From: Candidatus Nomurabacteria bacterium
Lineage (GTDB): Bacteria; Patescibacteriota; Saccharimonadia; JAGOAT01
Length of the DNA: 64,000 nt
Assembly (NCBI GenBank): GCA_020639315.1
Contig: JACKGM010000001.1
Location: forward strand, 18,511 to 82,510
Direction of reading: 5' to 3'
Position numbers and translations under genes: made by a program. A model generated the notes under the pieces. That model had not been told where the DNA came from and did no database searches. It saw nothing but the letters and a program-made list of their open reading frames with translations. Below, piece by piece: positions 5,081-63,786 of this stretch; position 1 is the stretch's first letter, and every line of letters begins with the position of its first letter.

Positions 5081-5143
5081 AAAACTAGCTTTATAGACTC
5101 TAGAGTTGAATCGGAAGTCTGGTTTTGTTTTTAACTTACTATA
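5081..5143 (-). mobile_element. MITE family B, terminal fragment
   Basis: AAAACTAGCTTTATAGACTCTAGAGTTGAATCGGAAGTCTGGTTTTGTTTTTAACTTACTATA. It is preceded by an unrelated 94-bp foldback (4976-5069; GTCTATTCCAG...CTGGAATAGAC). Confidence 0.8.
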
Positions 5144-11301: not shown

Positions 11302-11565
11302 GTCATCCTCCGAAACCCGCCCCTTGTCTTGTCATCCTCCGAAGCTCGGAGAGCTTACGGGGGATCTAGCATTTTGCATTTCCTATGACCAATTCAAATA
11401 CTGGATCTCCGGTATTACCCTTCGGGTAATCCGAAGATGACAGAGGAGAGAATTGTCATCCTCCGAAACCCGGAGGGTTTACGGGGGATCCAGTATTTCT
11501 GCATTGTGCGCCGTCATCCTCAAAGTCTAGCGACCTTCATCTGGAGCTAGACTTTGGGGATCCAG
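11302..11565. repeat. Family-A hairpin repeat cluster (5 units, both orientations) between convergent genes
   Basis: Units present: GTCATCCTCCGAAGCTCGGAGAGCTTACGGGGGATCTAG; rc GTCATCTTCGGATTACCCGAAGGGTAATACCGGAGATCCAGTATTTGAAT; GTCATCCTCCGAAACCCGGAGGGTTTACGGGGGATCCAGTATT; GTCATCCTCAAAGTCTAGC...GCTAGACTTTGGGGATCCAG. Confidence 0.92.
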
Positions 11566-12537: not shown

Positions 12538-13077
12538 TTATTGAGCTTCTGTAGCTATATCCTGCAAAGCGAGACTGAAGGCATCAGTAGTCAGGCTAGC
12601 CCCGGCTACTCGACTCAGGCTAATCTGGTCTAGGCTCTTACCAACTACCTTACTAGAGATCTGAGATTCAAACCTCGATAGATACTGACTAGATTCATGA
12701 TCTGAAGCCTGATAAGTCAAATCCATGCTTTCTACTATGTCTTGACTCAGGGTTAACTCCAGTGCTAGGCTAGCCGTGCCTCCTGGTACTCTATATGTCT
12801 GACTAGATTGATAAGTACCGTCTTGATAGGTATTACTAGCCTGAGTATTACTACTGCTATCTGAGCTAGAGCTAGACGAGTCAGTGGTCGCAGACTCTGA
12901 CTGAGTGCTGGTGCCTGAATCAGTCTCATCACTACTCCGATCGATTGAGGTACTAACTGTCTGCTGACTACTACTTATACTATCATCCTGATCACTAATC
13001 AAGGTAATATATACGATTACAAACAAGCCTACACTAACTCCTGCTATTGCTAAGATCTTTACTAAACGATTGTTCAT
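12538..13077 (-). CDS. Membrane-anchored FMN-binding domain protein (predicted ApbE substrate)
   Basis: 179 aa with an N-terminal TM helix, a long Ser/Thr-rich linker and a C-terminal FMN_bind-like domain. The flavinylation-type motif is SRVAGASLTT. GGAG lies 6 nt upstream of the ATG. Confidence 0.7.
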   Translation of the reverse strand: MNNRLVKILAIAGVSVGLFVIVYITLISDQDDSISSSQQTVSTSIDRSSDETDSGTSTQSESATTDSSSSSSDSSSNTQASNTYQDGTYQSSQTYRVPGGTASLALELTLSQDIVESMDLTYQASDHESSQYLSRFESQISSKVVGKSLDQISLSRVAGASLTTDAFSLALQDIATEAQ

Positions 13078-13156: not shown

Positions 13157-13320
13157 TATAGCAAGTTAAAAACAAAACCAGACTTTTGACCCAACTATAG
13201 AGTCTATAAAGCTAGTTTTCTTACTCACCATATCTATGGATATGGCTCTTAAGAAGAACTAACTTTCTAGTTCTCTATAGTACAGCTCAAATTGTCCGGT
13301 TTTGTTTTGAGCTTGCTATA
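13157..13320 (+). mobile_element. MITE family B, full copy (164 bp foldback)
   Basis: Termini are TATAGCAAGTTAAAAACAAAACCAGAC...CCGGTTTTGTTTTGAGCTTGCTATA. The whole element is an imperfect palindrome centred on CCATATCTATGGATATGG. Confidence 0.9.
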
Positions 13321-14718: not shown

Positions 14719-14756
14719 ATTGTTAGTTTTCTTGAGTATCTGAAGGCGTAAAAGTG

Positions 14757-14803
14757 CGAGATCCTGGATCCCCCGTAAGTTCTTCGAACTTGGGAGGATG
14801 ACA
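14757..14803 (-). repeat. Family-A unit
   Basis: The rc reads GTCATCCTCCCAAGTTCGAAGAACTTACGGGGGATCCAGGATCTCGC. Confidence 0.85.
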
Positions 14804-14806
14804 GGA

Positions 14807-14845
14807 GTTGGGTCAAAAGTCTGGTTTTGTTTTTAACTTGCTATA
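14807..14845 (-). mobile_element. MITE family B, terminal fragment
   Basis: GTTGGGTCAAAAGTCTGGTTTTGTTTTTAACTTGCTATA. Confidence 0.8.
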
Positions 14846-14866
14846 TATACTCATAATTTGTTACTT

Positions 14867-14926
14867 CGGGGTCAGACCCCGTCAATTTATATCTGTTAAG
14901 GATGCCAACTTCGGGGTCAGACCCCG
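14867..14926 (-). repeat. Twin-palindrome module, type C
   Basis: CGGGGTCAGACCCCG at 14867-14881 and 14912-14926 (45-bp period). The core TTTATATCTGTT lies between them. Confidence 0.9.
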
Positions 14927-14962
14927 AATAATAGATACCAAAAAAATGAGGGGTCGTGCTTA

Positions 14963-15942: not shown

Positions 15943-16197
15943 ACTGTATTTGTCCAATCATAAAGTTGTAATCAACAAAAATAATTTTAAGTGCCCCTAT
16001 ATCCTTGTTATCAACACTGTCAACCTGACAGAATAAACATATAACAAGCTAAAAACAAAATCAGCATTCTAATCACTGCCAATGAGCAAATATTAATCGA
16101 CAGAGATATCTAACCGTATTAACAGATATTGTATTTGATACAGCTTTCAGAATTAATTTTATACAAGCGTTAAAGTAATGTATAATACGCAGTTAAT

Positions 16198-16947: not shown

Positions 16948-18272
<1,325 letters not shown>

Positions 18273-18289
18273 TTAGTTATCCTAACACA

Positions 18290-18657
18290 TAGGATTGAAT
18301 TCTGGTAATGCGAAATACTGGATCCCCCGTAATCCTCTATGAGGATTCGGAGGATGACAATACACCCCAGTCATCTTCCAAAATCCTGTAAGGATTTATG
18401 GGAGATCCATCTCCCCAGCGTCATCCTCGACTTTTCCGCCCTTCATTTGAAGGAAAAGTTGGGGATCCAGACTTCTAGATAATGGGTTAGGGTTTAGGTA
18501 ATACAGTTACTTTTTATGCTTATTGTTAGTTTTCTGGATACCCAGAGCAAGCTCTGAGTATGACGGATGCAAATGCAGAGATACTGGATCCCCCGTAAGT
18601 TCTCCGAACTTCGGAGGATGACAGAAGAGGAGTAGGTTTCGGAGGATGACAAGACAA
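18290..18657 (+). repeat. 368-bp direct repeat, copy 1 (itself a cluster of family-A hairpin units)
   Basis: I read it base for base as identical to 20559-20926 (offset 2269 bp), running from TAGGATTGAATTCTGGTAATGCG to GGAGGATGACAAGACAA. Confidence 0.93.
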
Positions 18658-18855
18658 TGACACTAACTTAATACTTTGTAAGTTCTATTCAATATACAAA
18701 TTAAGCATTAGTAGGATCCCAAAAGGTACTGACTTCTCCTTAAGCTAATAGCATTGGGATGACAACATATAGCCGCCTACAACAAAACCTGTTTGTTCTG
18801 GGTGATAGATTATCGATCTAGAGTTGTCGCTATTGTGACAAGTCATATCCGTAGA

Positions 18856-19021
18856 TATAGCAAGCTCAAACCAAAACTAGACAATTTGAGCTGTACTATA
18901 GAGAACTATAAAGGTAGTTCTTCTTAAGAGCCATATCCATATAGGTATGGTGAGTAAGAAAACTAGCTTGATAGACTCTAGAGTTGGGTCAAAAGTCTGG
19001 TTTTGTTTTTAACTTGCTATA
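18856..19021 (-). mobile_element. MITE family B, full copy (inverted relative to 13157-13320)
   Basis: TATAGCAAGCTCAAACCAAAACTAGAC...GGTTTTGTTTTTAACTTGCTATA, collinear with the other copies. Confidence 0.9.
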
Positions 19022-19108
19022 CGATGAGGAGCAATAGTGGCAGTTATAGACCATAAGATACAGTCAAAAGTACAGGTTTTGTTTTTCGGGGGCTATAGAA
19101 TTATCATG

Positions 19109-20347
19109 CTACAAACCTAACCCAGTCGCTACTCTTAATACCCGGCCAGCCAACCTAGCCACTACAGAACTATACCCTCCAACATTATCATAACCAATCT
19201 CTATACCTATTACTGTAGTCCCACTACCCAAATGGTCTACACTAATCCCCAGTATCACACTACTAGTGTCAGAACCGACTACATCTAGTTTGGTACTAGG
19301 CCGATAACCTTCGCTATTATAACCTTTGCCAAACTGGGAAACACCACTCAGCCTATCGTCATCACTCATTGCTTCCCTTAGTAATTTCTCGATGTCATTA
19401 GAACCAACCTTCCCTTTAATATCACAAATGATACTCAAATGCGCTATACTACCAGTCGCAACATCGGCCCTAGTAGATATTACTTGCCCGATATTACTTG
19501 CCAATACAGGGTACAGTATTGCCAACTCTTGACTTGCACCCGAACTACCAGATCTGAATGTTTGCCCAATTTCACTTACTCTATCACTATTAGTTTTGGC
19601 ATGGCTAAGGTTTAAACCAATAACCTTGATTGAGTCAACGCCAACCTTATCAGCCACTACCCCAAGTACAGGCGCTACCGCGTTGGTAGTACAAGAACTT
19701 GCTGAAAACATACCTTGATCAATAGCTTCTGCTATGTCAGATTCCCCATCCTTGGCCCCCGATACTATTAAGGGTGGTCTACTATCGCTATCACCCAATT
19801 TCCAAGGACAAGTAATCATTACGATGCCATCAGGATACATCTCATAAAAAGATTGATATACTTCCCTAACTCTTTCTGGAGTCTTGAACGCTCCTGTGGC
19901 ATCAACAACCATCTTACTACCTGAACCAAACCCAAACCCTGTTATTTGGTTTGGATCCCTGGTCATAGTAGCCGTTACTGGCTGACCATCAAATAATACT
20001 TCTTTTTTTTCTCCCAAAGTATAGCCTACTGGAAGCACCTGACCCATCGAAGCATAGACCGGGTGATACAATGTACCATGCTCAAACTTTCCCTGAGGAA
20101 ATCTTCCTGATACATTTGAAAAATTAGCCCCAAATAATCGTGCAACATCAATATCGCCAACCGTAGCCGTATTCGGATCATCTTTACCAAGTAATCCCCC
20201 TGAGAAGTTAGCTCCTACTACCGATAGACCTGCTTGTCTACCTCCTTGGTTGTTATTACTTGCGACTTTTGCAGCAACTGCAGATCCTATATCACCCAAA
20301 GCCCCGTTGATAAATATTCCAACCTCACTGCTATGCATAGCTTCCAA
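19109..20347 (-). CDS. Divergent, elongated glyceraldehyde-3-phosphate dehydrogenase family protein
   Basis: 412 aa. It has a Rossmann start GIFINGALGDIGSAVAAKV, an active-site-like SASSCTTNAVAPVLGVV (canonical S-C-T-T-N) and a downstream SHAKTNSD. It is about 75 aa longer than typical GAPDH. GGGGG lies before a TTG start at 20347; the alternative ATG is at 20338. Confidence 0.65.
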   Translation of the reverse strand: MEAMHSSEVGIFINGALGDIGSAVAAKVASNNNQGGRQAGLSVVGANFSGGLLGKDDPNTATVGDIDVARLFGANFSNVSGRFPQGKFEHGTLYHPVYASMGQVLPVGYTLGEKKEVLFDGQPVTATMTRDPNQITGFGFGSGSKMVVDATGAFKTPERVREVYQSFYEMYPDGIVMITCPWKLGDSDSRPPLIVSGAKDGESDIAEAIDQGMFSASSCTTNAVAPVLGVVADKVGVDSIKVIGLNLSHAKTNSDRVSEIGQTFRSGSSGASQELAILYPVLASNIGQVISTRADVATGSIAHLSIICDIKGKVGSNDIEKLLREAMSDDDRLSGVSQFGKGYNSEGYRPSTKLDVVGSDTSSVILGISVDHLGSGTTVIGIEIGYDNVGGYSSVVARLAGRVLRVATGLGL

Positions 20348-20440
20348 GAAACCCCCTTACTATATAACTTAATTGGTCTTTATATATTGACTATAACAGT
20401 CTTGAGAAAAATAGTCCACAGAACCAACCTTGCTACAAAA

Positions 20441-20530
20441 GCCATATCCAAAGATATGGTGAGGAAGAAAACTAGCTTTATAGACTCTAGAGTTGGGTCA
20501 AAAGTCTGATTTTGTTTTTAACTTGCTATA
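20441..20530 (-). mobile_element. MITE family B, right half only
   Basis: GCCATATCCAAAGATATGGTGAGGAAGAAAACTAGCTTTATAGACTCTAGAGTTGGGTCAAAAGTCTGATTTTGTTTTTAACTTGCTATA. Confidence 0.85.
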
Positions 20531-20558: not shown

Positions 20559-20926
20559 TAGGATTGAATTCTGGTAATGCGAAATACTGGATCCCCCGTA
20601 ATCCTCTATGAGGATTCGGAGGATGACAATACACCCCAGTCATCTTCCAAAATCCTGTAAGGATTTATGGGAGATCCATCTCCCCAGCGTCATCCTCGAC
20701 TTTTCCGCCCTTCATTTGAAGGAAAAGTTGGGGATCCAGACTTCTAGATAATGGGTTAGGGTTTAGGTAATACAGTTACTTTTTATGCTTATTGTTAGTT
20801 TTCTGGATACCCAGAGCAAGCTCTGAGTATGACGGATGCAAATGCAGAGATACTGGATCCCCCGTAAGTTCTCCGAACTTCGGAGGATGACAGAAGAGGA
20901 GTAGGTTTCGGAGGATGACAAGACAA
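20559..20926 (+). repeat. 368-bp direct repeat, copy 2
   Basis: Identical to 18290-18657. It is followed (20927-20996) by extra tandem family-A half units. Confidence 0.93.
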
Positions 20927-21016
20927 GGGGCGGGTTTCGGAGGATGATAGGAGAGAGATGGGTTTCGGAGAATGACAGAAAGGGAGTAGGGTTTCAAAAA
21001 CTAGACTTCAATCAAC

Positions 21017-25872: not shown

Positions 25873-26914
25873 AAATCACCTTTCCCTCGCCTGGATTAAT
25901 CAAAAATTCTCCCCCAGAATAAATCACTTGATTGGATTTTGTGACTTGACTAACCTTTCCTGGTACTACCATACCCGCAAAGGGACTCCACTGAGCCTTA
26001 CTAAAGAATTGGCTAGGGTCAAGCTCGTAGCTCTCCATCTTGATACTGATTAGATAATCTTCCGGCTCTAAGTTAAATATCTCTTTCGGTCTAGTATGGC
26101 ACTTATCTATTATTTGTTCGATGCTAATCTTACCCTGTTTGTACGCACTTAAGAGTAAGGGCAAAGTCGTCTCAAGCCCGGGCACACCAAATGCTCCTCC
26201 TACCTTATCCTCAAGTGTATGAGGAGCGTGATCAGACTCGACAATATCAATCTGGTCAAAATTCTCCCATAGATAATCTTGATCCCGTTCTGATTTGAGG
26301 CTAGGCAACATCTTAGCGTGATCACCAATCCTGCCTGTATCAAGTTCGCTTAAAAATAAATGATGAGGCGTAACGCCACAGGTCAGATTGTAACCTTGAC
26401 GCTTAGCCTTGATAATCTTTTCAAGCACTTCCTTGCTCGGCATATGACAGATATGGACTGGACGATTAAGACCTCTTAGCGACTCGAGTGCCAAGTCAAT
26501 AGTATCTTCCTCGCTATGGAGTAAGACGACCTTATCCTCCGGCCAAGCTTGATAAATCTTGCGCAGGTGTTCTATATCTAGCAAATACCCTCCAGTAGTC
26601 TTATTGAGGTATAGCTTAAGTCCGATCGCCAAATCACTGACCCCTGGGAATTGATCTAGATTGTCACCAAGAGAACCGAAGTGAAACCCAAGCTCAACCA
26701 AGGTTTTACCCTTGGCGATTGTGATTTTTTCTTCTAGCTTTTCTAGGCTAGTAATGGGCTGAGCATTGTTTGGCATATCGACGATGGTCGTGAACCCTCC
26801 AGCTAGGGCTGCCTTTGTGCCAGAGATAAAGTCTTCCTTAGTAGTCTGCCCAGGATCACGCAAGTGTACATGGACATCGATTAGGCCTGGTAGTAGTATT
26901 TTATCCTGGCTCAT
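25862..26914 (-). CDS. pyrC: Dihydroorotase
   Basis: Metal-binding LIDVHVHLRDPG, plus HLF and ESDHAPH motifs. Start placed at MSQDKILLPG (rc ATG 26912-26914), because the track N-terminal extension runs into a MITE fragment. Confidence 0.88.
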   Translation of the reverse strand: MSQDKILLPGLIDVHVHLRDPGQTTKEDFISGTKAALAGGFTTIVDMPNNAQPITSLEKLEEKITIAKGKTLVELGFHFGSLGDNLDQFPGVSDLAIGLKLYLNKTTGGYLLDIEHLRKIYQAWPEDKVVLLHSEEDTIDLALESLRGLNRPVHICHMPSKEVLEKIIKAKRQGYNLTCGVTPHHLFLSELDTGRIGDHAKMLPSLKSERDQDYLWENFDQIDIVESDHAPHTLEDKVGGAFGVPGLETTLPLLLSAYKQGKISIEQIIDKCHTRPKEIFNLEPEDYLISIKMESYELDPSQFFSKAQWSPFAGMVVPGKVSQVTKSNQVIYSGGEFLINPGEGKVIYGK

Positions 26915-26929
26915 TAATTTTAATTGTAT

Positions 26930-26970
26930 CATAGTTAAAAACAAAACCGGACAATGTGAGCTGTACTATA
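26930..26970 (-). mobile_element. MITE family B, terminal fragment abutting pyrC start
   Basis: CATAGTTAAAAACAAAACCGGACAATGTGAGCTGTACTATA matches the first 42 bp or so of the copies at 18856 and 36115. Confidence 0.75.
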
Positions 26971-28620: not shown

Positions 28621-29048
28621 ATTTGTATCCGTCATACTCAGAGCTTGCTCTGGGTATCCAGAAAACTAACAACCAACATTAAAAGTAACTGGGTTAACTC
28701 AATACATTCAATCCATTATCTAGAGTTCTGGATCCCCAACTTTTCCTTCAAATCAAGGGCGGAAAAGTCGAGGATGACCCAAACTCCTGTCATCCTCCGA
28801 AACCCGTCCCTCTCTTGTCATCCTCCGAAACCCGCTCCTTGTCTTTGTTATCCTCCGAAGCTCGGAGAGCTTACGGGGGATCCAGTATTCCTGCATTGCC
28901 TTGAGATTCAATTCAAATACTGGATCTCCGGTATTTCTCTAAAGAGAAATCCGAATATGACACGAAGGGGGGCGGAAATTTGGGCTGTTGGCAGAGAAGG
29001 GATTGTCATCCTCCGAAACCCGGAGGGTTTACGGGGGACCTTGTATTG
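28621..29048. repeat. Family-A hairpin repeat cluster
   Basis: Begins GTCATACTCAGAGCTTGCTCTGGGTATCCAG and includes tandem half units and head-to-head doublets. It ends GTCATCCTCCGAAACCCGGAGGGTTTACGGGGGACC. Confidence 0.92.
28789..28935 (+). repeat. 147-bp direct repeat, copy 1 (family-A composite) left of the RelE/DinJ cassette
   Basis: 144/147 identical to 29750-29896. The differences are two G/A changes in CCGAAACCC versus CCAAAACCC, and GTTATCC versus GTCATCC. Confidence 0.9.
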
Positions 29049-29070
29049 CTACTTTATAAACATCTATCCC

Positions 29071-29331
29071 CTACCTGTAGAGCTGACTATGTGTGCCGAC
29101 AGCTACAAAGAGTACCTTACTTTCAGTTATGACTTGAAAATGTAGCCTTAAATCGCCTCCTGCACTTATAGAACGAAACCCTAACCACTCCCCTTTTAAC
29201 CCGTGATTACGAAGCGAGGGATTGGCTACGTCTTGTAAAAATAAAGCAACAGCAGCTCTAGCCTGTTGCTGTTTCTTGAGAGGTAGTTTCTCGAATTGTT
29301 TATTGAACACTTTAGTAAAATCAATGTCCAT
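29071..29331 (-). CDS. RelE/ParE superfamily toxin (YafQ-like)
   Basis: 86 aa. FNKQFEKLPLKKQQQ...LRNHGLKGEWLGFRSISAGGDLRLHF matches the RelE/ParE fold pattern. It lies 8 nt downstream of the antitoxin gene. Confidence 0.7.
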   Translation of the reverse strand: MDIDFTKVFNKQFEKLPLKKQQQARAAVALFLQDVANPSLRNHGLKGEWLGFRSISAGGDLRLHFQVITESKVLFVAVGTHSQLYR

Positions 29332-29338
29332 AATTTTG

Positions 29339-29620
29339 CTATTTCATTAAGCTATCCAGGTGGGCTAATGCCCCTTTTGCCCCCTTAGTATGTGTAATAT
29401 CACGGTCAGCTACATAATCGGCTTTAGCGTCCCTCATGATCTGTTCTAGGTAGGGAGTAGGCTCTAGGTTAGTACTCAAAACGACACGCCTATCTCGTAA
29501 AGTCTGTTTTACGACCATATTTACAAGAGCGGTACTAGACACACCTAACTCGGTAGCAAAAGTCTTTAGCTCCTGTTTGGTTTTCTCGTCAATCTTAATA
29601 CTTAACTGTACGCTACCCAT
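29339..29620 (-). CDS. RelB/DinJ-like ribbon-helix-helix antitoxin
   Basis: 93 aa. The N-terminal VQLSIKIDEKTKQELKTFATELGVSSTALVNMVVKQTL is an RHH-type segment like DinJ. Confidence 0.65.
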   Translation of the reverse strand: MGSVQLSIKIDEKTKQELKTFATELGVSSTALVNMVVKQTLRDRRVVLSTNLEPTPYLEQIMRDAKADYVADRDITHTKGAKGALAHLDSLMK

Positions 29621-29749
29621 AGTATAGTCATTGTATATCTATCGTATATGTATGTCAATACGATCGATATTGCTTTACAGCCCATAGTATATTCAATGGG
29701 GCCTGAAAGTATCTATCCTGATAACGACTTTAGTGAACGGTATTGTACC

Positions 29750-29896
29750 GTCATCCTCCAAAACCCGTCCCTCTCTTGTCATCCTCCAAAACCCGCTCCT
29801 TGTCTTTGTCATCCTCCGAAGCTCGGAGAGCTTACGGGGGATCCAGTATTCCTGCATTGCCTTGAGATTCAATTCAAATACTGGATCTCCGGTATT
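29750..29896 (+). repeat. 147-bp direct repeat, copy 2, right of the RelE/DinJ cassette
   Basis: See copy 1. The offset is 961 bp. Confidence 0.9.
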
Positions 29897-30103
29897 ACCC
29901 TTCGGGTAATCCGAAGATGACACGGGAAGGGATTGTCATCCTCCGAAACCCGGAGGGTTTACGGGGGATCCAGTATTCCTGCATTGCCTTGAGATTCAAT
30001 TCAAATACTGGATCTCCGGTATTACCCTTCGGGTAATCCGAAGATGACACGGGAAGGGATTGTCATCCTCCGAAGTTCGGAGAACTTACGGGGGACCTTG
30101 TAT
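29750..30103. repeat. Family-A hairpin repeat cluster with an internal ~100-bp tandem duplication
   Basis: The block ...CCAGTATTCCTGCATTGCCTTGAGATTCAATTCAAATACTGGATCTCCGGTATTACCCTTCGGGTAATCCGAAGATGACACGGGAAGGGATTGTCATCCTCCGAA... occurs twice in tandem. Confidence 0.92.
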
Positions 30104-30129
30104 CTCGTACTCCTACCAGGAGGCCACCC

Positions 30130-32167: not shown

Positions 32168-32204
32168 AGATTGTCCAAATTCCTCGATCCATCCTCTATG
32201 TCTT

Positions 32205-32372
32205 GTCATCCTCCGAAGTTCGGAGAACTTACGGGGGATCCAGCATTTCTGTATTACTGGGCAACTAATTCAAATACTGGATCTCCGGTATTACCCTCCG
32301 GGTAATCCGAAGATGACGAGGAGAGGGTTGTCATCCTCCGAAGTTCGGAGAACTTACGGGGGATCCAGTATT
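32205..32372. repeat. Family-A hairpin repeat cluster between convergent genes
   Basis: GTCATCCTCCGAAGTTCGGAGAACTTACGGGGGATCCAG occurs twice, flanking an inverted GGTATTACCCTCCGGGTAATCCGAAGATGAC unit. Confidence 0.92.
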
Positions 32373-32409
32373 CCTGTATTTAATCGGTATTCACTTCAAA
32401 TACCAAGCA

Positions 32410-34158: not shown

Positions 34159-34211
34159 CCTTTCTCCACAGTAAGACATTCCCCTAAAAGTGACCCCCAT
34201 TTTTGCCATTT

Positions 34212-34270
34212 CAAGGGCACCCCTTGAGCATTTATATCTGTAAAAAAATTATTTTCAAGGGCACCCCTTG
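34212..34270 (-). repeat. Twin-palindrome module, type D (CAAGGGCACCCCTTG x2)
   Basis: Palindromes at 34212-34226 and 34256-34270 (44-bp period), with core TTTATATCTGT. It lies between divergent proS and infC. Confidence 0.9.
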
Positions 34271-35128: not shown

Positions 35129-36072
35129 CTAACTCACCTCCTGCCCTAGTGCTGCTCGTATTACAAACCTTGTGACCCCTGTATTACCTAGATCTAATGG
35201 GGCTACATAGCCCCTGGGTACCCTATAATCTTCCCTCGTATCGACAATCTGCCGCCTTACCCTATCTGGCACTTTCTCAACCTCTGATTTCCTATTACGA
35301 TAGTTCACTACTCTAGAGAGACCAACTGCCCCTAAGAAGGCACCTAGCCCGGCAAATCTATTAACCCTGTTGCCATATAACCTCACGGCTTCAAAACTGC
35401 CATTTTTGCCCCAGACTAGCAAAACACTTCGCAGCGTAACTCCTGTTATGCTTTGTCGTGTTTTGGTATTCTGGAATAAAAATCATCAGCTTTGACCTCG
35501 CAAGTTTATATGGCAACAGGGTTATTGCTCGAAATATCATTAACCCCCAGCCCAGCCATTCCACTAGTAGGAATATCTACAAACCAGTCCCTCAGCCTTT
35601 GGCGATTTTGATATTTTCTTATAGTCTCTGGATATTTTTTGGATTCAGCATAAAACTTCAATCCGTTGATTAGGGCTTGCATCAAGCGCTGATTGTATCT
35701 TATAGTGAACTCTTCCCACTCTAATTTCTCCTCAGAATCTAGGTCGGGCAATAGCTTTAAGTAGATTTGACCTAAAGAGACCAATAACCTTGCATTATCA
35801 CCATCTTGCTCTGGTTGAATAAACTGCCAACTATCACCTTCATCGTCTACTGACAGGCCAGTAAAGACAATCTCTAGTTCTGATAAATCTGGCTTATCCT
35901 CAATATTGGGCAGCCCAAAAGCATCATAATACCCTCTCAAGTATTGAAGGAGATCCTTTTGCCATTCTTCCTCAACTAAACCCTCACCAAATAGCATATG
36001 AAGTGCTGGACTATCCTCAATGGTAATCTTAGGTAGTTTTCTCTCGTAACTATTGTTTGTTTCAGGGGTCAT
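35129..36072 (-). pseudogene. Orphan gene split by a 161-bp MITE (track ORFs 35506..36072 and 35129..35422)
   Basis: The MITE core 35363-35523 sits between the two ORFs. It supplies the stop of the upstream part and the first 20 codons of the downstream part. Removing 161, 164 or 167 bp joins them in frame (...GVNDISS-N-RFAGLGAFLG...), giving about 259 aa. Confidence 0.7.
35363..35523 (+). mobile_element. MITE family F inserted in a coding region
   Basis: Same TIRs, flanked by ATT (35360-35362 and 35524-35526). It separates two same-strand ORFs that become one on excision. Confidence 0.92.
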
Positions 36073-36114: not shown

Positions 36115-36278
36115 TATAGCAAGCTCAAAACAAAACCGGACAATTTGAGCTGTACTATAGAGAACTAGAAAGGTAGTTATTCTTAAGAGCCATATTCATA
36201 GATATGGTGAGTAAGAAAACTAGCTTTATAGACTCTAGAGTTGGGTCAAAAGTCTGGTTTTGTTTTTAACTTACTATA
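36115..36278 (-). mobile_element. MITE family B, full copy
   Basis: TATAGCAAGCTCAAAACAAAACCGGACAATTTGAGCTG...GGTCAAAAGTCTGGTTTTGTTTTTAACTTACTATA. Confidence 0.9.
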
Positions 36279-37989: not shown

Positions 37990-38384
37990 GTCACCAAACC
38001 AAAACCCCGCAGGGATTTATGGGAGACCCACCTCCTCTGTCATCTTCGGATTACTCTTTAGAGTAATACCGGAGATCCAGTATTTGAGTTAGCCACAGGC
38101 AATATGGAATGCTGGATCCCCCGTAAGTTCTCCAAACTTCGGAGGATGACAATACAATACACAATGCCGAATACTGGATCCCCCGTAAACCCTCTGGGTT
38201 TCGGAGGATGACAAGACAATGCCATTAACTTAAGAAAAAGCCAGTATCTTTTGACATCCTATTAAAGCTTGATTTGTACATTGAATAAAACTTGCAAAAG
38301 CTTAAGTTAATGGCATTGAGATGACAGGAGAAGGACGGGTTTCGGAGGATGACAATCCTCTCCTCCGTCATCTCCGGTATTTGA
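37990..38384. repeat. Family-A hairpin repeat cluster downstream of rplT
   Basis: Includes GTCACCAAACCAAAACCCCGCAGGGATTTATGGGAGACCC, GTCATCTTCGGATTACTCTTTAGAGTAATACCGGAGATCCAGTATTTGAG and several inverted units. Confidence 0.9.
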
Positions 38385-38388
38385 ATTA

Positions 38389-39054
38389 CTAACCAAAAAT
38401 CAACTGGATAAAGTCCTGACTAGCTTGTTCTAGCTGGCCTTCTCTATTGATAACAAAATCAAACCAACCCTGACCCTGATTCTTCCTCGCCCATTCAAGC
38501 TCAGTCTTTGTAGTGCCCAGCCTAGTAGCTAGCTTACCCCTATCTATCTCATCTCCACTCTCCTGCCAACGCCTGAGAATTCTACGCTCAAGTATCTGAA
38601 GATTACTGTCCAGATCATTTAATGGTGCAGGAGCAATGAATATTACTTTCAAATCAAGCTCCCTTCTAATAATCTCGATGCCTTGATATTCTATCTCGAG
38701 TAGTACCTTCCTGCCCGCCTCAAGCGGTCTTAGGATTGATAAAATCGGTGTACCATAGTAATTGCCATGTGCCATGGCATATTCCAGGAATTCACCCTGA
38801 TCAATCTTTTGCTCAAACTCAGCTTTGCTCAAGTGGCAATACGCTTTGTATGGTCTGATGTCACCAATCTCGGCCACTTGATCTCGTTGCTCTCTAGCTC
38901 TAGAAGTAGCACTGACTGGAATCACCAATTTTTGATCACCCTCTAGCCTGGAATTGACCATCTGTTCCAGCGCATTCTTCCCAGCTCCCGACGGGCTGAC
39001 GATCGCATACAGATTACCTTGACTCAACTCTCTTAGGTGATCTATGTCTGACAT
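38389..39054 (-). CDS. gmk: Guanylate kinase
   Basis: P-loop IVSPSGAGKNAL and FLEYAMAHGNYYGT. Start placed at MSDIDHL (rc ATG 39052-39054), because the track extension runs into a MITE terminus. Confidence 0.8.
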   Translation of the reverse strand: MSDIDHLRELSQGNLYAIVSPSGAGKNALEQMVNSRLEGDQKLVIPVSATSRAREQRDQVAEIGDIRPYKAYCHLSKAEFEQKIDQGEFLEYAMAHGNYYGTPILSILRPLEAGRKVLLEIEYQGIEIIRRELDLKVIFIAPAPLNDLDSNLQILERRILRRWQESGDEIDRGKLATRLGTTKTELEWARKNQGQGWFDFVINREGQLEQASQDFIQLIFG

Positions 39055-39060
39055 AGAGAG

Positions 39061-39066
39061 ATTATA
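39061..39066 (-). promoter_or_regulatory. -10 box TATAAT formed at a MITE-B terminus, 6 nt before the gmk ATG
   Basis: Minus strand reads ...GTATGCTATAAT-CTCTCT-ATG. TATA (39063-39066) is the MITE end and AT (39061-39062) is flank. Confidence 0.5.
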
Positions 39067-39226
39067 GCATACCCAAAACAAAACCGGACAATTTGGGATT
39101 ACTAATAAAGAGCTAGAAAGTTAGTTCTTTATATGAACCTTACTTATAAGTAAGGTGAATAGAAAAACTAGATTTGTAGACTTTAGTAGTGGGTCAAAAG
39201 GCTGGTTTTGTTTTGAGTATGCTATA
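39063..39226 (-). mobile_element. MITE family B, subfamily 2, full copy
   Basis: TATAGCATACCCAAAACAAAACCGGACAATTTGGG...GGGTCAAAAGGCTGGTTTTGTTTTGAGTATGCTATA. Its left terminus abuts the gmk start. Confidence 0.9.
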
Positions 39227-39258: not shown

Positions 39259-39363
39259 CCAGGGGATCTCTGATCCAATTTGCTAAGGAAATTTGAAAGA
39301 TGACAGAAGGAGGGTGCATTGTCATCCTCCGAAACCCAGAGGGTTTACGGGGGATCCAGTATT
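39259..39363. repeat. Family-A head-to-tail pair
   Basis: An inverted unit ...GATCCAATTTGCTAAGGAAATTTGAAAGATGAC, then GTCATCCTCCGAAACCCAGAGGGTTTACGGGGGATCCAGTATT. Confidence 0.88.
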
Positions 39364-39374
39364 TAAAACTAATC

Positions 39375-41947: not shown

Positions 41948-43379
41948 CTCCACCCCGTATCATGATTAGAACTGTCCTAATAATAATCTTAATATCCAGC
42001 CAAGGTGACCAGTGTTCGGCATAATATATTTCTAACCTCAGTCGATCCTGATAATCTAGCTGATTTCTGCCTGAGACTTGCCAAAGACCAGTCAGGCCTG
42101 GCTTGATCATCAATACCTTGTCTTTGCTCTGTTTGTGAGCATTGAGTTCGTCTGGCAAATGAGGCCTGGGACCAACCACACTAAGTTGCCCTAGTACTAC
42201 ATTGACAAACTGGGGCCACTCATCGACCCCCAGTCTTCTAAACAATGCAGTTGCTGGGTTGATCCTAGGGTCAGGATTGAGCTTATGATCTCTTTTGTAG
42301 ACCGGTATCAGATCTGCCCTACCCATTCTGGTCAATGTCTGGACTGGATCCGAATTTGGGTAACCCTTACCATCAGAATACCTATATAGCATTGTACGAA
42401 ATTTATAGACTCCAATCTCCTTACCCCCCCTACCAAGCCTCTTGGTCTGATAGATTACTCCACCCTTGGGATCAGATAGCTTGATAACAATTGCCATCAG
42501 TATCATGACCGGAAATCCCAACACCAAAGCACCCAAGCCAAAGACTGTATCAAACACCCTTTTGCCAATCAATTGAAATCCGGTCAACGGAGTGGGGTCG
42601 ATCTGGCTGATGATTTGACCGCCAAAATATTGATTGGTAATTCTACCTTGATAAAGGTTTTGAGTAGTTGGTAGGTATTGATAAATCTTACTAGCCTGGT
42701 GAACGATCTCTACTAGCTCCCACTGTATACTCTTACTGATCGATCCCCCTATCTCAATGATCAAATCTATCTGATCATCCCTGACACCCTGAAGCACTTG
42801 ATCGACTATCTCTTCTCGATCAAGCTGATCGACAATCAGTAGCTTGACCTCTACAATCTGCTGATCCTGCTGAATAGATTGCCTGAGACTCTCAAGATGC
42901 TTGGGCTGCTTGCTACTAGCAATAATCATTGCTCTTCTTAACCCATAACGTTTGAGATAGAGTAGTTGACGCAATTGGCCGACAAAGTATCTCCCGATAA
43001 AAAGTAGCAATACTGCAAATACCCAGGCTAGTACTGGCACTAACTTTGAAGGAAATAGAGGCTCAACTGTGAAATAATCTATCAGGATAGTTAGAACAAT
43101 ACTAGATAGACTAGCTAGTAACAAGCGGCCAAACTGATGTCTGCGACCTCGGGCTGGAGTAGTATATAGTCCAGTAGCAAAGAAGATAATTATCCAGAGC
43201 GGAATCACTGGCAAGATCAGCTTCAAATACTCTTGACCACTGATCGCGAAGGCAAATGGCTTGTCTGAGTAATCTCCTCTGACTAGATAGGCCAAAACAA
43301 ACCCCCCAAGCATTGCTAGGAAATCTACCCCGACTTGAAGCAGGTTGACTAGTTGCTCGCTTCTTTTTTGCATAGTCAT
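41937..43379 (-). CDS. Polyprenyl glycosylphosphotransferase (WbaP/EpsL-type priming sugar transferase)
   Basis: TM-rich N-terminal half and a C-terminal bacterial sugar transferase domain (VFDTVFGL...IYQTKRLGRGGKEIGVYKFRTM...GPRPHLP...KPGLTGLWQVSGRN). Start placed at MTMQKRSEQ (43379, or 43373). The track N-terminal 77 aa are translated repeats. Confidence 0.85.
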   Translation of the reverse strand: MTMQKRSEQLVNLLQVGVDFLAMLGGFVLAYLVRGDYSDKPFAFAISGQEYLKLILPVIPLWIIIFFATGLYTTPARGRRHQFGRLLLASLSSIVLTILIDYFTVEPLFPSKLVPVLAWVFAVLLLFIGRYFVGQLRQLLYLKRYGLRRAMIIASSKQPKHLESLRQSIQQDQQIVEVKLLIVDQLDREEIVDQVLQGVRDDQIDLIIEIGGSISKSIQWELVEIVHQASKIYQYLPTTQNLYQGRITNQYFGGQIISQIDPTPLTGFQLIGKRVFDTVFGLGALVLGFPVMILMAIVIKLSDPKGGVIYQTKRLGRGGKEIGVYKFRTMLYRYSDGKGYPNSDPVQTLTRMGRADLIPVYKRDHKLNPDPRINPATALFRRLGVDEWPQFVNVVLGQLSVVGPRPHLPDELNAHKQSKDKVLMIKPGLTGLWQVSGRNQLDYQDRLRLEIYYAEHWSPWLDIKIIIRTVLIMIRGGDGV

Positions 43380-43400
43380 ATTATAGCATTCCCCCGATGT

Positions 43401-43460
43401 CGCGAACTGTTCGCGGTTTTTGCCACTTTGCCAGATTAGAAATGTCGCGAACTGTTCGCG
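43401..43460 (-). repeat. Twin-palindrome module, type E (CGCGAACTGTTCGCG x2)
   Basis: Palindromes at 43401-43415 and 43446-43460 (45-bp period). The spacer is GTTTTTGCCACTTTGCCAGATTAGAAATGT. It lies 13 nt from the -10 of the sugar transferase gene. Confidence 0.9.
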
Positions 43461-43543
43461 GTTTTTGCGCCAGTGCTTAGTGTTTCTTATAAACTCGATA
43501 AGTGCCGTATCTTGCCCCATACTCTTCATGAGTTTTGCAACTT

Positions 43544-43603
43544 CGGGGTCAGACCCCGTTATTTTATATCTGTTGGGAAGGTCAGTTTCGGGGTCAGACC
43601 CCG
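43544..43603 (-). repeat. Twin-palindrome module, type C
   Basis: CGGGGTCAGACCCCG at 43544-43558 and 43589-43603 (45-bp period), with core TTTATATCTGTT. It lies upstream of the sugar transferase operon. Confidence 0.9.
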
Positions 43604-43665
43604 ACAACACAAAAACAAAGAGGGACGGTTATGGGGTGGTGAGGTTATAAGGGAGTAGGTCTATT

Positions 43666-44934: not shown

Positions 44935-45029
44935 ATCGTATGTTATAATTTTACCATGAGTATTACTCCTCTAAACCAGCAATCCTCTGCGAGTCTAGTG
45001 GGAGCAAAAGCGGACAATCTTTGGCTACT

Positions 45030-45193
45030 TATAGCAAGTTAAAAACAAAACCAGACTTTTGACCCAACTCTAGAGTCTATAAAGCTAGTTTTCTTCTTCA
45101 CCATATCTATGGATATGGCTCTTAAGAAGAACTAACTTTCTAGTTCTCTATAGTACAGCTCAAATTATCCGGTTTTGTTTTGAGCTTGCTATA
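45030..45193 (+). mobile_element. MITE family B, full copy
   Basis: Near-identical to 13157-13320 over its full length. Confidence 0.9.
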
Positions 45194-45279
45194 CTACCCT
45201 AGGGTACAAGACACCCAAATTTTGTTTTAAAGAGTCTATACAAATAACCTTGAGCCAGCTGAAGTAATCAGACTATTAC

Positions 45280-48849: not shown

Positions 48850-49252
48850 TACTACTACTCCATCTGGAGTCTCATGCAGTAAAGAATAAGCTGTAGCCCG
48901 TCATATCTTTTAACATTACTATTCAAATTAAGTTGCCAAAGTGCCAAATCAAACCCCAGTCTCGTTTCTTCTGTGGGAGGCTAGATCACCAACGTTGAAG
49001 TCCTCTGGGAATACTAGCTCACTATTCATATCCATACTGATATTGTAACACCTTGGCAAGAAATAAAATATTAGATACATAAACGGGATACTCGCCACTC
49101 GTTGCTTACATCAAATCACTATCGAATTGAATACAAGTCTTGAATATCCCGTATTTACAATTCGATATTGGCTAGTGCGCCGATATTAATGTGATGTAAG
49201 CAAATTAATCCTAGCATAGTGCTTACGCTTCTAGCAACCATTTCACCCATTT

Positions 49253-49311
49253 CAAGGGCACCCCTTGCAGTTTTCTATCTGTAAGAGATGCTTTTTCAAG
49301 GGCACCCCTTG
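49253..49311 (-). repeat. Twin-palindrome module, type D
   Basis: Palindromes at 49253-49267 and 49297-49311 (44-bp period), with core TTTCTATCTGT. Confidence 0.9.
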
Positions 49312-49403
49312 CATTATAATTCTCACTTCTCCCCAGTCATTACCTATACCCACCCTACTAGCCCTGGCAGCATTGGACCGAGATCACAGATATTCTAAAA
49401 TAT

Positions 49404-49535
49404 ATTACTGGATCCCCCGTAAACTCCTTCGGAGTTTCGGAGGATGACAGGAGAGGGGCGAGTTTTGAATATGATAGGAGTTGGGTCACCAAACCAAAAT
49501 CCCACAAAGATTTATGGGATATCCAGTATTTGAAT
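49404..49535. repeat. Family-A hairpin repeat cluster
   Basis: rc GTCATCCTCCGAAACTCCGAAGGAGTTTACGGGGGATCCAGTAAT, and GTCACCAAACCAAAATCCCACAAAGATTTATGGGATATCCAGTATTTGAATT. Confidence 0.9.
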
Positions 49536-50424: not shown

Positions 50425-50750
50425 GTAGTTTCCCCTGGAACCTTGGGAGATGACAATAACCTCTGCTGTCATTTTCCAAAATCCCGCCCCTATTCTCGTT
50501 ATCTTCCAAATTTCCTTTAGGAAATTATGGGAGCTCCACCCTCCTCCTGTCATCTTCGGATTACCCCTTGGGGTAATACCGGAGATCCAGTATTTGAATT
50601 AGACCCATAATAATGCAAAATACTGGATCCCCCGCAAGTTCTCCGAACTTCGGAGGATAACAATGCTCCCTCTGTCATCTTCCAAATTTCCGTAGGAAGT
50701 TATGGGGCACTTTCCTATTACTATTTAAGAGATCCAGTATTTGAATTTGG
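50425..50750. repeat. Family-A hairpin repeat cluster in a divergent intergenic region
   Basis: Includes GTCATCTTCGGATTACCCCTTGGGGTAATACCGGAGATCCAGTATTTGAATT, rc GTTATCCTCCGAAGTTCGGAGAACTTGCGGGGGATCCAGTATT, and GTCATCTTCCAAATTTCCGTAGGAAGTTATGGGG. Confidence 0.9.
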
Positions 50751-52150: not shown

Positions 52151-52367
52151 ACTGGATCCCCCGTAAGTTCCCCGAACCTCGGAGGATGACAGAAGTCGAG
52201 TCACCAGCCCAAATTTCCACCCTACTTTCGTGTCATCTTCCAAATTTCCATAGGAAATTATGGGATCCAATATTTGAGTTGAATCCCGAGGAATGCAAAA
52301 TACTGGATCCCCAGTAAACCCTCTGGGTTTCGGAGGATGACAAGAGAGGGGCGGGTTTCGGAGAGTA
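52151..52367. repeat. Family-A hairpin repeat cluster between convergent genes
   Basis: Includes GTCATCTTCCAAATTTCCATAGGAAATTATGGGATCCAATATTTGAG and two inverted GGATCC...GGAGGATGAC units. Confidence 0.9.
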
Positions 52368-52382
52368 ATTAAAAAATCAGAT

Positions 52383-52787
52383 CTAAGCAACTAGATCGTA
52401 GCTATCTGGATTATTAGAATCCTCAACCCTAGCTCTCCCCACCCCCAGAAGCCTGGCTACGAGCTCAGCGCGTACCTTAAAACGACCCCATTGTTCCTGA
52501 GTAAGCCCTTCTGGTATACCCACAGAATCTCCAAACATAGTTCTTAATACCTCAATGGTAAAGGGCCTACCATCCCCACCCTGAGAAGGTATTTCGACAG
52601 GTTGGCTACTTCCAGCTTTTCTTTCAGAGTTGTTGAATAATCTTCCTACGGTGGCTACAGAAAATCTATTACCCTTGAGTTTTTTTAATGGTTCCCCACT
52701 GTAAGGCAAGCCCCCTGGATTATAAGGGTCACGATTATATGATTCATTAGGTAGTTCTGGGCTGTGGTAATTATTCATTCCATCCAT
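52383..52787 (-). CDS. Hypothetical protein
   Basis: 134-aa ORF. No motif recognised. Confidence 0.5.
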   Translation of the reverse strand: MDGMNNYHSPELPNESYNRDPYNPGGLPYSGEPLKKLKGNRFSVATVGRLFNNSERKAGSSQPVEIPSQGGDGRPFTIEVLRTMFGDSVGIPEGLTQEQWGRFKVRAELVARLLGVGRARVEDSNNPDSYDLVA

Positions 52788-53236
52788 TTGGGGTTTTCTA
52801 CTTATAAAAATAATGAAGAAGTTCTCACCAGAATACCCCTACCAGTGAGAACAGTTTTGTTTGAACACTTTGTCTTGATAATATATATATCATAAATGTC
52901 ACAATATGTCAAACATAATGTCAATAGATAGGCTTTCTACCTCCTGCCGTCAGCCCTATTTGTCAATTCTATAATAATGCGTACTAAGCAGTGTATAAAA
53001 AGGTTCCCACATCCTCATAGCTTTTTTGTGGGTCAGAGTGTTAAGCTTGACCAAGCTATAGCAACTGCAATCACAAATATAGCAAGTTAAAAACAAAATC
53101 AGACATTTCTATCGATCGCAATTCCTGACTAGATTCCAGATTGTAACCCGCTCATGCTTGCATTTCAAATCATTTTTGCTAAGATGTAATCAATCCCCTC
53201 TATCTTTTATCAAAGTGAGGACAGCAGCAAAAACCT

Positions 53237-55995: not shown

Positions 55996-56101
55996 ACTTT
56001 CCCCTAGTGTTAATGTCTTATGAGTTTTTATTATATCGCACACTGCTAATATATCCCAATAAACCTGGCCCAGCAACAAACTTGCCCTCTAGCCAAACTG
56101 T

Positions 56102-56161
56102 GGCGAACTGTTCGCGGTTTTTGCCACTTTACCAGATTGGAGATGTCGCGAACTGTTCGCG
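56102..56161 (-). repeat. Twin-palindrome module, type E
   Basis: GGCGAACTGTTCGCG at 56102-56116 and CGCGAACTGTTCGCG at 56147-56161 (45-bp period). The spacer is GTTTTTGCCACTTTACCAGATTGGAGATGT. It lies upstream of glmS. Confidence 0.9.
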
Positions 56162-57774: not shown

Positions 57775-57945
57775 CACAAGTACAATCATATACCGAGCTA
57801 CCTTGTATCGTCAAGTACTTAGCATAAGTTTTATAGCAAAACTTGTGGATAACTTCTACCGTGTCGCAGAATAACTGTTCGGTATAGCCCCCTTCCCTTG
57901 TTCGGTACCGAACACTCTCCCTCCAAAAAATCACAAGCACTTCTG

Positions 57946-58005
57946 CAAGGGGTGCCCTTGAAAATCACTATGTCAACAGATATAAAATTGCAAGGGGTGC
58001 CCTTG
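57946..58005 (+). repeat. Twin-palindrome module, type D
   Basis: CAAGGGGTGCCCTTG at 57946-57960 and 57991-58005 (45-bp period), with core AACAGATATAAA. It lies between divergent padR and rsmI. Confidence 0.9.
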
Positions 58006-61113: not shown

Positions 61114-62140
61114 TAATAATTATAGCACGGAATGCTTCCCAGACAGAATCTTCTCCTCTAGTCTTGAGGTAATACCACCACTCACCACCCCAAAGGTAAG
61201 CTTCCTTGATCCCAGTCTTTCCCAGATAACGCAATCTACTTCCCACTTCGTCCGAATCGATATATCCCAACTGCTGCTCAATCGTCATTTCAGATATTGG
61301 CTTATCGCCCCAGGGCTCAAGCTGAAACTCATGGACAAAGACCTCCCGCCTATCTACCAGTCCGACTAGCCCCGCCCTAATCGTATGCCAATAGCTTGGC
61401 AAAATAAACTGCCAACTATTGGTCCTACCAAACAAATCAAAATGTGCCTGAAAGTAAATCGAGAAACCGACCTGATCACCAATTGGTTTTCTAATCGGTA
61501 TCCCACTCTGATTGCTGACATTGATTCTGACTGGATGCTCCGGATCAATTGATTTGACTAAGTCATACTCAGCTTGGAGTCTAGTATTGCTCCGATCATA
61601 ATCACAATCCCCAAAGTGCTTATTACTATATTCGTTTTCCAGCTGGTAGGCACTAAGGGCAGGGTTATTTTGGTAACGCTCAACTACCCTAGAGATAAAC
61701 TGATCTAGTTTCTGATCCCTCTGATCGTAATCTAGACTACTGACCCAATCTGGTTGATGACATTCTGGCCAACGGGGTTGCCTGAGGCCGATTGCAAGAT
61801 CAATCTTAGCTCCAAATTTCTCGGCTTGTTCAAACTGCCAATCCAAATCAGCAAAATCATACTGATCCGGACTCTTTTCGATCAAGTCCCAATAGCTCAT
61901 CAATCGCAAATCTCGAAACCCCAAATCTTCTAATAATGCCAAATAGTTCTCTTGCCAATCTAAACCAAAGCCCTGACTTGCCTTGATCGAGAAACTGACC
62001 CCTAGTCGCCTGGCTTGATCCTTGCTCTGAGTTAAGTAGTACCTATCCACTAGTATCCCTACTGTTACCAGTAGTAAAATGACCGTGAATAATCCACCTA
62101 TATAATATAGACTACTTGATGGTGGTTTAAAATTTACCAT
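61085..62140 (-). CDS. Membrane-anchored clan GH-A-like glycoside hydrolase
   Basis: 351 aa with an N-terminal TM helix and a TIM-barrel-like pattern. A candidate acid/base is YQLENEYS; the family is unassigned. Confidence 0.45.
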   Translation of the reverse strand: MVNFKPPSSSLYYIGGLFTVILLLVTVGILVDRYYLTQSKDQARRLGVSFSIKASQGFGLDWQENYLALLEDLGFRDLRLMSYWDLIEKSPDQYDFADLDWQFEQAEKFGAKIDLAIGLRQPRWPECHQPDWVSSLDYDQRDQKLDQFISRVVERYQNNPALSAYQLENEYSNKHFGDCDYDRSNTRLQAEYDLVKSIDPEHPVRINVSNQSGIPIRKPIGDQVGFSIYFQAHFDLFGRTNSWQFILPSYWHTIRAGLVGLVDRREVFVHEFQLEPWGDKPISEMTIEQQLGYIDSDEVGSRLRYLGKTGIKEAYLWGGEWWYYLKTRGEDSVWEAFRAIIINDNGSQTQD

Positions 62141-62218
62141 TTATCATTTAGTAGCAACTGCCTGGATAAATATAGGGCTTTTGGGGGTTCCCAAAAAGTG
62201 CAAAATACTTAAATGCGA

Positions 62219-62291
62219 GATATTAGATCCCCCGTAATCCCCTATGAGGATTTGGAGGATGACAAAAGAGAGGCGGGTTCCGAAGGACGAC
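62219..62291 (-). repeat. Family-A unit plus half unit
   Basis: The rc reads GTCATCCTCCAAATCCTCATAGGGGATTACGGGGGATCTAATATCTCGC. Confidence 0.85.
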
Positions 62292-62315
62292 AATGTGAAG
62301 GCGGTAGATACATCA

Positions 62316-63368: not shown

Positions 63369-63622
63369 TTGATTAAATTGTATCATACATTGCAAGTTAA
63401 AAACTAATTGACCTAATATTTTGTACATTTCATACAGCTTGGGTTTGGCAGCAAGCTAGTTGTCCTCTTATCTACCAATCCTTGCTCGGTACTACCTACA
63501 GGTAAAAATTAACAACTCTAGTATTTAATGAATAAGTATTTTACTCTTATCAAAAATGCTGACTCTAGTCTGGGTGGTCAATTTACCAGCTTGATAGCTA
63601 CTACCCTACTACCCTATCAACT

Positions 63623-63786
63623 TATAGCATACCCAAAACAAAACCAGATAATTTGGGACTACTAATAAAGAGCTAGAAAGTTAGTTCTTTTTTGTGAACC
63701 TTACTTATAGTAAGGTGAATAGAAAAACTAGATTTGTAGACTTTAGTAGTGGGTCAAAAGGCTGGTTTTGTTTTGAGTATGCTATA
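63623..63786 (-). mobile_element. MITE family B, subfamily 2, full copy
   Basis: Near-identical to 39063-39226, with a handful of substitutions and a 1-nt indel in the centre. Confidence 0.9.

Follow-up and report, generated by a model that had tools for sequence, protein, structure and literature searches.

Probable insertion of an IS630-type MITE into a pre-existing leaderless promoter box of gmk in a Candidatus Saccharibacteria genome

The guanylate kinase gene gmk of a Candidatus Saccharibacteria genome starts six nucleotides from a -10 box that is partly made of the end of a short mobile element. This junction prompts one to ask whether the element donated the promoter of gmk, was drawn to a promoter that already existed, or came to lie in it by chance. 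The gene is found in a 64-kb stretch of DNA (positions 1-64000), which was analysed as a whole and is referred to here as the window; the element belongs to a MITE family, family B, with several further copies in the same stretch (Table 1). An earlier note on this DNA had placed family-B ends in or beside the -10 boxes of four genes (gmk, pyrC, an AI-2E transporter gene and a sugar transferase gene), and had offered both promoter donation and preferential insertion as explanations.

The gmk junction and leaderless gene starts

On the minus strand, the left end of the MITE runs straight into the gene (...GGGTATGCTATAAT CTCTCT ATG), the strand reading GGGTATGCTATAATCTCTCTATG, with TATAAT at 39066-39061, 6 nt from the ATG at 39054. 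The junction sequence agrees with the earlier description of this TATAAT as a MITE end plus two flanking bases, and the gmk box is a true physical hybrid of MITE, target duplication and flank: MITE DNA accounts for five of its nine bases (TGCTA), the duplicated TA for two and the flank for the remaining two. The start of gmk is matched at residue 1 by both of the close homologues that were found (221 and 222 aa), and exact-protein look-ups with the products of gmk and of the neighbouring DUF4012 gene returned no match. There is no Shine-Dalgarno sequence before gmk, and a scan around the gene detected neither sigma-70 -35/-10 pairs nor terminators.

Boxes in this position are common in the window. 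The motif TGNTANNNT is concentrated 6-9 nt ahead of the first ATG of long ORFs, where 12 of 69 crude starts carry it; the background at other distances is about 0.2 per distance. With a looser hexamer, the -10 box lies 5-9 nt from the ATG in some 25 of the 63 genes of the window (~40%). Among 22 aligned sites, information is confined to ATGnTAnAAT, while the -35 zone holds at most 0.43 bit per position. The consensus in the window is an extended -10 box, aTGnTAnAAT, with no -35 signal, and the gmk box ATGCTATAAT fits it at every informative position. For pyrC and the AI-2E gene, NCBI annotates the box-proximal starts as well, and equivalent boxes occur with no MITE nearby, as in TGCTATAAT before gene 61113 (box 61119-61127) and TGATACAAT before gene 34143. 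Taken together, the motif statistics suggest that the boxes function as promoters and give rise to leaderless mRNAs.

[quoted passage not shown] The window shares with group C the location of the box before many of its genes, but its box is of the extended -10 type and has one more conserved base, an A. The text of the group C paper makes no mention of Saccharibacteria (PMC6028130), and a literature search turned up no publication on this group that deals with MITEs or discusses leaderless genes. For annotators, the practical consequence is that gene starts in this lineage often lie 5-9 nt after an aTGnTAnAAT box.

Family B and its IS630 relatives

A profile built from family-B copies and run with nhmmer over the 64-kb window recovers six full copies of 164-166 bp (E-values 1e-45 to 1e-54), all of which end in TATAGCA...TGCTATA. 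About ten fragments accompany them, some obtained with the profile and further solo ends by inspection of the sequence, and the earlier count of six full copies and at least six fragments with these ends is thereby borne out. The element proper measures 160 bp (TAGCA...TGCTA), the outer TA on each side being target DNA. In the 164-bp gmk copy it occupies 39065-39224, between duplicated TA dinucleotides at 39063-39064 and 39225-39226, and its 23-nt terminal inverted repeats (TATAGCATACCCAAAACAAAACC ... GGTTTTGTTTTGAGTATGCTATA) belong to a single end-to-end hairpin (-59.5 kcal/mol, z=-10).

Table 1. Positions of the genes, promoter boxes, family-B sequences and other repeats in the window
Feature	Position	Strand	Remarks
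gmk, guanylate kinase, 221 aa	38389-39054	-	PF00625, E=3e-18; predicted leaderless
gmk extended -10 box ATGCTATAAT	39061-39070	-	ATGCTA, MITE end; TA, duplication; AT, native flank
Full B copy at gmk	39063-39226	+	nhmmer E=7e-48; termini match in both orientations
Full B copy	13157-13320	-	79 nt upstream of the start of gene 12538-13077; other assemblies filled
Full B copy	18856-19021	+	between tgt and a GAPDH-like gene
Full B copy	36115-36278	+	42 nt upstream of the start of gene 35506-36072, which has its own Shine-Dalgarno sequence
Full B copy	45030-45193	-	in codon 25/26 of the PEP-utilising enzyme gene
Full B copy	63623-63786	+	~255 nt upstream of the AI-2E start; same subfamily as the gmk copy
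Degenerate B-like element	16950-17073	-	TATAGTATAAAACAAAACC...GGCTTGTTTTGGGGTTATA; gives tgt its last codons and stop
Truncated B fragment, terminal part only	26933-26970	+	nhmmer match 26936-26970, E=5.6e-5
Family-B fragments	20438-20530, 5081-5143, 14805-14845, 26933-26970, 53078-53108, 16040-16071, 534-564, 19022-19097, 16950-17073
pyrC extended -10 box TGATACAAT	26923-26931	-	8 nt upstream of the ATG at 26914
AI-2E transporter extended -10 box TGATACAAT	63377-63385	-	8 nt upstream of the ATG at 63368
13-nt match GCAAGTTAAAAAC to B terminus	63392-63404	+	6 nt from the AI-2E box; B origin uncertain
Sugar-transferase extended -10 box TGCTATAAT	43380-43388	-	6 nt upstream of the ATG at 43373
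Palindrome cassettes	14857-14927, 34197-34270, 43534-43604, 49238-49311, ~57880-57990, ~575-655; also 43398-43460, 56099-56161
Short hairpin repeat	11322-11505, 14725-14813, 18307-18666, 20576-20992, 28838-30112, 32196-32380
Short hairpin repeat, further sites	38037-38223, 39312-39371, 49397-49450, 50547-50672, 52151-52385, 62212-62307

The note was also right that a B-like terminus supplies the end of tgt (17067-18272; TIGR00430 covering residues 17-396 of 401), where a degenerate element of this type is present. Beyond tgt, a 300-nt direct repeat with 100% identity (18290-18589 and 20559-20858) brackets the GAPDH-like gene (19109-20338), which has a full B copy on one side and a truncated copy (20438-20530) on the other. 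This repeat pair could represent either a segmental duplication or some composite structure.

No transposase gene is present within the 64-kb window. Among species-representative genomes scanned with the terminus pattern, chance matches occurred in many phyla, and true copies of the terminus GGTTTTGTTTTnnnnnTGCTATA were found only in Candidatus Saccharibacteria, Saccharimonadia and Patescibacteria genomes, with full MITEs of 165-167 bp also in L023, L027, L033, L047 and L035. A metagenome scan for B termini gave one match only, which is unrelated and consists of a terminator with TTGCTATAAT after it in another organism. One Saccharibacteria genome, different from that of the window, contains a 1110-bp IS bounded by family-B termini (L015, 4266-5375; ends TATAGCAACCTAAAAACAAAACC). 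The ORF of this IS, 345 aa long, encodes an IS630 transposase, which scores 182 bits with NF033545 (cut-off 100) and also matches Pfam DDE_3 (PF13358) and HTH domains. A TGCTATCCT box stands 6 nt before the ATG of this transposase gene (L015, 5329-5375), which thus appears to share its leaderless promoter type with host genes.

IS630/Tc1-type elements insert at a TA dinucleotide, which is duplicated. For family B, duplication of the TA target is proven by a strain-level pair of empty and filled sites at the copy in the PEP-utilising enzyme gene, where L067 reads GGCTACT-TA-CTACCC and the window reads GGCTACT-TA-[TAGCAAG...CTTGCTA, 160 bp]-TA-CTACCC, one flank being 99.8% identical. The same pair demonstrates mobility; the other B sites are fixed in all assemblies seen, and look-ups of the genes neighbouring copies 13157 and 36115 gave filled sites only. 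Given the TA duplication and the termini held in common with the autonomous IS630 (DDE_3) element of L015, family B, which is small, non-coding, multi-copy and hairpin-forming, is an IS630-derived non-autonomous MITE of a Candidatus Saccharibacteria genome.

The strain with the empty site encodes an intact PEP-utilising enzyme gene (PPDK_N; L067, 1-1479), predicted to be leaderless, with the box TGTTATAAT 6 nt from the ATG. The window retains only 25 codons of this gene, followed by the MITE and about six codons (44956-45215, plus strand; ATG at 44956). The remainder has been replaced, next to a degenerate B-like end (~45222-45242), and the loss of the gene looks like one associated with the MITE insertion. 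Same-species short-read assemblies (the starts of L060, L061, L064 and L065) break at or near B copies or fragments; that MITE copies break short-read assemblies of this lineage calls for caution among annotators.

Empty sites at gmk and the other cited junctions

The assemblies of the same species are all filled at gmk, and the empty site comes from a different species (L001), in which the order of the DUF4012 gene and gmk is conserved, with amino-acid identities of 69% and 80%, respectively. The spacer between the two genes is 36 nt long in this relative and contains no MITE, ending in ...CAGTATGTTATAAT CCTTTT ATG, so that the box TGTTATAAT is followed by 6 nt and the ATG. When the element and one TA are subtracted from the window, the remaining sequence (CCTATGATATAAT CTCTCT ATG) has the length of the L001 spacer and a nearly identical box, an equality of length that holds only if TA duplication is assumed. 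The ancestral gmk promoter would already have been an extended -10 box, approximately TATGATATAAT, 6 nt from the ATG. Because the MITE-free relative has the box at equal spacing, the gmk promoter is best regarded as having pre-existed, and as having been rebuilt rather than donated. The comparison of empty and filled sites that the earlier note had set as a test of donation has thus gone against it, since an intact -10 box is already present at the same distance. In the window, one copy of an abundant short hairpin repeat lies between the DUF4012 stop and the MITE; together, the repeat and the MITE enlarge the DUF4012-gmk spacer from the 36 nt of the relative to 320 nt.

The remaining three junctions are of unequal standing. 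At pyrC, the B-type terminal sequence reported beside the box is a genuine fragment (35-38 nt) that ends one base from the box and has the same sequence in three further assemblies of the species. The start of pyrC is that of a 100% identical NCBI Candidatus Saccharibacteria protein of 350 aa, and its relatives (L057/L058), which have no MITE, carry TGCTATAGT followed by 8 nt and the ATG. A cyanobacterial origin of the window is rejected on the strength of this protein identity and because HIP1 sites are lacking. The pyrC box is possibly a mutated MITE end (TGCTATA to TGATACA, through one indel or a 6-bp deletion), or it may be native DNA.

The B terminus said to follow the AI-2E box amounts to one exact 13-mer. 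This is the only terminal 13-mer match outside the annotated copies, it is not among the nhmmer matches of the family-B profile, and a 13-mer match to the B terminus arises somewhere in the window in 17% of Markov simulations (P=0.17). The match is therefore at chance level and not demonstrably MITE-derived. A relative (L066) has TGTTACAAT followed by 7 nt and the ATG, compared with 8 nt in the window. The sugar transferase, described earlier as sharing the gmk-type junction, does not do so: only ATGCTATA is common with family B, there is no GGTTTTGTTTT context and no B context upstream, and the identical box before gene 61113 has no MITE. To judge from these comparisons, the sugar-transferase box is a generic box rather than a B-derived one.

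Chance insertion, targeting and promoter donation

It is probable, given the evidence above, that an IS630-derived MITE entered the central TA of a pre-existing leaderless gmk box, that the box was rebuilt, and that the insertion was tolerated. In the proposed sequence of events, one B copy would have inserted in the IS630 manner at the central TA of the box (TGATA-TA-AT), whereupon the element end ATGCTA, the duplicated TA and the flanking AT would make up ATGCTATAAT, the end sequence happening to restore the box. The informative positions would have been kept, with a change only at the free 'n' and none in the distance to the ATG. Since promoters of this kind do not depend on a -35 element, the displacement of upstream DNA by 162 bp would have come at little cost, and the insertion at gmk could therefore be tolerated and fixed. 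Expression of gmk was probably unchanged by the insertion.

The alternative that the outward MITE end (TGCTATA) provided gmk and other genes, formerly expressed in some other way, with a new hybrid promoter has in its favour that more than half of the gmk box (5/9 bases) is MITE DNA. In addition, MITE ends followed by ..T would yield TGCTATANT boxes, for example TGCTATACT at 45193 and 63786, and outward promoters have been documented for Correia elements (PMC10969869, PMC3184786). However, the MITE-free relatives are already provided with boxes at gmk, pyrC and the AI-2E gene, and only one of the 12 full-copy ends, that at gmk, abuts a gene start. Promoter donation by the MITE ends, as the earlier note had suggested, is thus very unlikely. 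Still less probable is that the TATAAT of the junction plays no part and that gmk depends for its expression on transcripts reading through from the upstream DUF4012 gene. Both genes run in the same direction, but a transcript would have to cross a perfect hairpin of 164 nt to reach a gene that lacks a Shine-Dalgarno sequence, and a box at that spacing precedes about 25 genes of the window as well as gmk in a relative.

Active targeting would instead require that the IS630-type transposase prefer TATA-rich or easily melted -10 boxes, leading to an accumulation of B ends there. This is unlikely. The other full-copy ends that face a start do so from 42-583 nt away and the rest face the 3' ends of genes. 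Five of the six full copies lie away from a gmk-type promoter site, one of them interrupting a coding gene (45030-45193). About 3% of intergenic TA sites in the window fall inside start-proximal -10 hexamers, and the probability that at least one of 13 insertions does so is 0.33, a strict count of one in 13 being observed. A probability of 0.024 for at least three of 13 is obtained with a generous zone defined post hoc (the hexamer and 12 nt upstream), in which pyrC and the AI-2E gene, with its chance-level match, are counted. No box-like consensus emerges from the targets reconstructed for the other full copies (ACT-TA-CTAC twice, ACT-TA-CCC, AGA-TA-CGA and ACA-TA-AAT), nor from those in L023, L027, L033 and L047. 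The preferential insertion into -10 boxes proposed earlier is not upheld by these figures, and there is no convincing enrichment of family B at promoters.

On the side of targeting stand the genuine fragment beside the pyrC box, the possible one beside the AI-2E box, and two truncated copies in another Saccharimonadia genome with a geometry equal or nearly equal to that of gmk. These read ATGCTA-TA-CT followed by 6 nt and the ATG (L009), and TTGCTA-TA-TAAT followed by 7 nt and the ATG of a SpoU methylase (L042). Three B-type ends in two genomes thus form a -10 box at a leaderless start, somewhat above the 3% expected per TA site, and a mild target bias is possible, as is selection that retains those ends now serving as promoter parts. 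As the strict count is compatible with it, chance insertion at TA sites followed by survival, rather than targeting, is the likelier source of the promoter association.

Another reading, about as doubtful as targeting, is that the ...ATGCTA termini are an adaptation that mimics the upstream half of the -35-independent extended -10 box of the host. If so, insertion into the TA of a leaderless -10 box would rebuild the promoter, making such boxes safe landing sites in the compact genomes of Saccharibacteria, and the persistence of solo ends at starts (pyrC; L009 and L042) would be accounted for.

Among known systems, RUP with IS630-Spn1 and the Correia elements come closest. RUP, the repeat unit of pneumococcus, is described as a MITE of 107 bp mobilised by IS630-Spn1 (PMC2229807), and as far as that description goes, family B resembles it in being short and non-coding, with terminal inverted repeats matching an IS630-family IS, insertion at TA and many intergenic copies. 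Family B differs from RUP in its host (Saccharibacteria), its sequence and its length (164 bp), and also, relative to RUP as portrayed in that source, in that one copy sits in a -10 box and rebuilds it. The Correia or NEMIS elements of Neisseria are reported as MITEs of ~105-155 bp with TA duplication, 5'-TA-3' termini and long-hairpin transcripts, often located just upstream of genes and with ends that carry sigma-70-like promoter elements able to drive their neighbours (PMC2229807, PMC10969869, PMC3184786). Family B is likewise a MITE with TA duplication, a hairpin and copies upstream of genes. Unlike Correia elements, whose promoters add expression experimentally and would be absent from an empty site, family B seems to have reconstituted at gmk a promoter that pre-existed, with boxes already present in the MITE-free relatives L001, L057/L058 and L066. 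Many genes of the window are, furthermore, predicted to be leaderless with -35-independent boxes, and the two families have no sequence relationship.

Hybrid promoters are also formed by the ends of IS1, IS2 and IS257, with one part in the element end and another in the flank. In these classical cases the IS supplies a -35 element, thereby activating a silent or weak gene. The gmk box is similarly divided between element end and flank, but family B gives the TGnTA half of an extended -10 box, in place of an equivalent native half. The gmk case involves a known class of element and reveals no new mechanism. It documents an IS630-derived MITE family in Saccharibacteria (TM7), and offers a natural comparison for how a TA-duplicating element can occupy a core promoter without destroying it.

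Two further kinds of repeat occur in the window, which has no Rfam family at gathering thresholds over its whole 64 kb. The short hairpin repeat, GGATCCCCCGTAA(stem-loop)CGGAGGATGACA, is very abundant and often in tandem. In the palindrome cassettes, two copies of an 11-13-nt palindrome (GGGGTCAGACCCC, AAGGGCACCCCTT or GTCGCGAACTGTTCGCGAC) flank the core TTTATATCTGT, and several cassettes directly adjoin the boxes of leaderless promoters (genes 690, 14979, 58025 and 43373). The cassettes might be paired operators, or else another mobile element placed near promoters. Throughout the window GC skew is negative, and most genes are on the minus strand.
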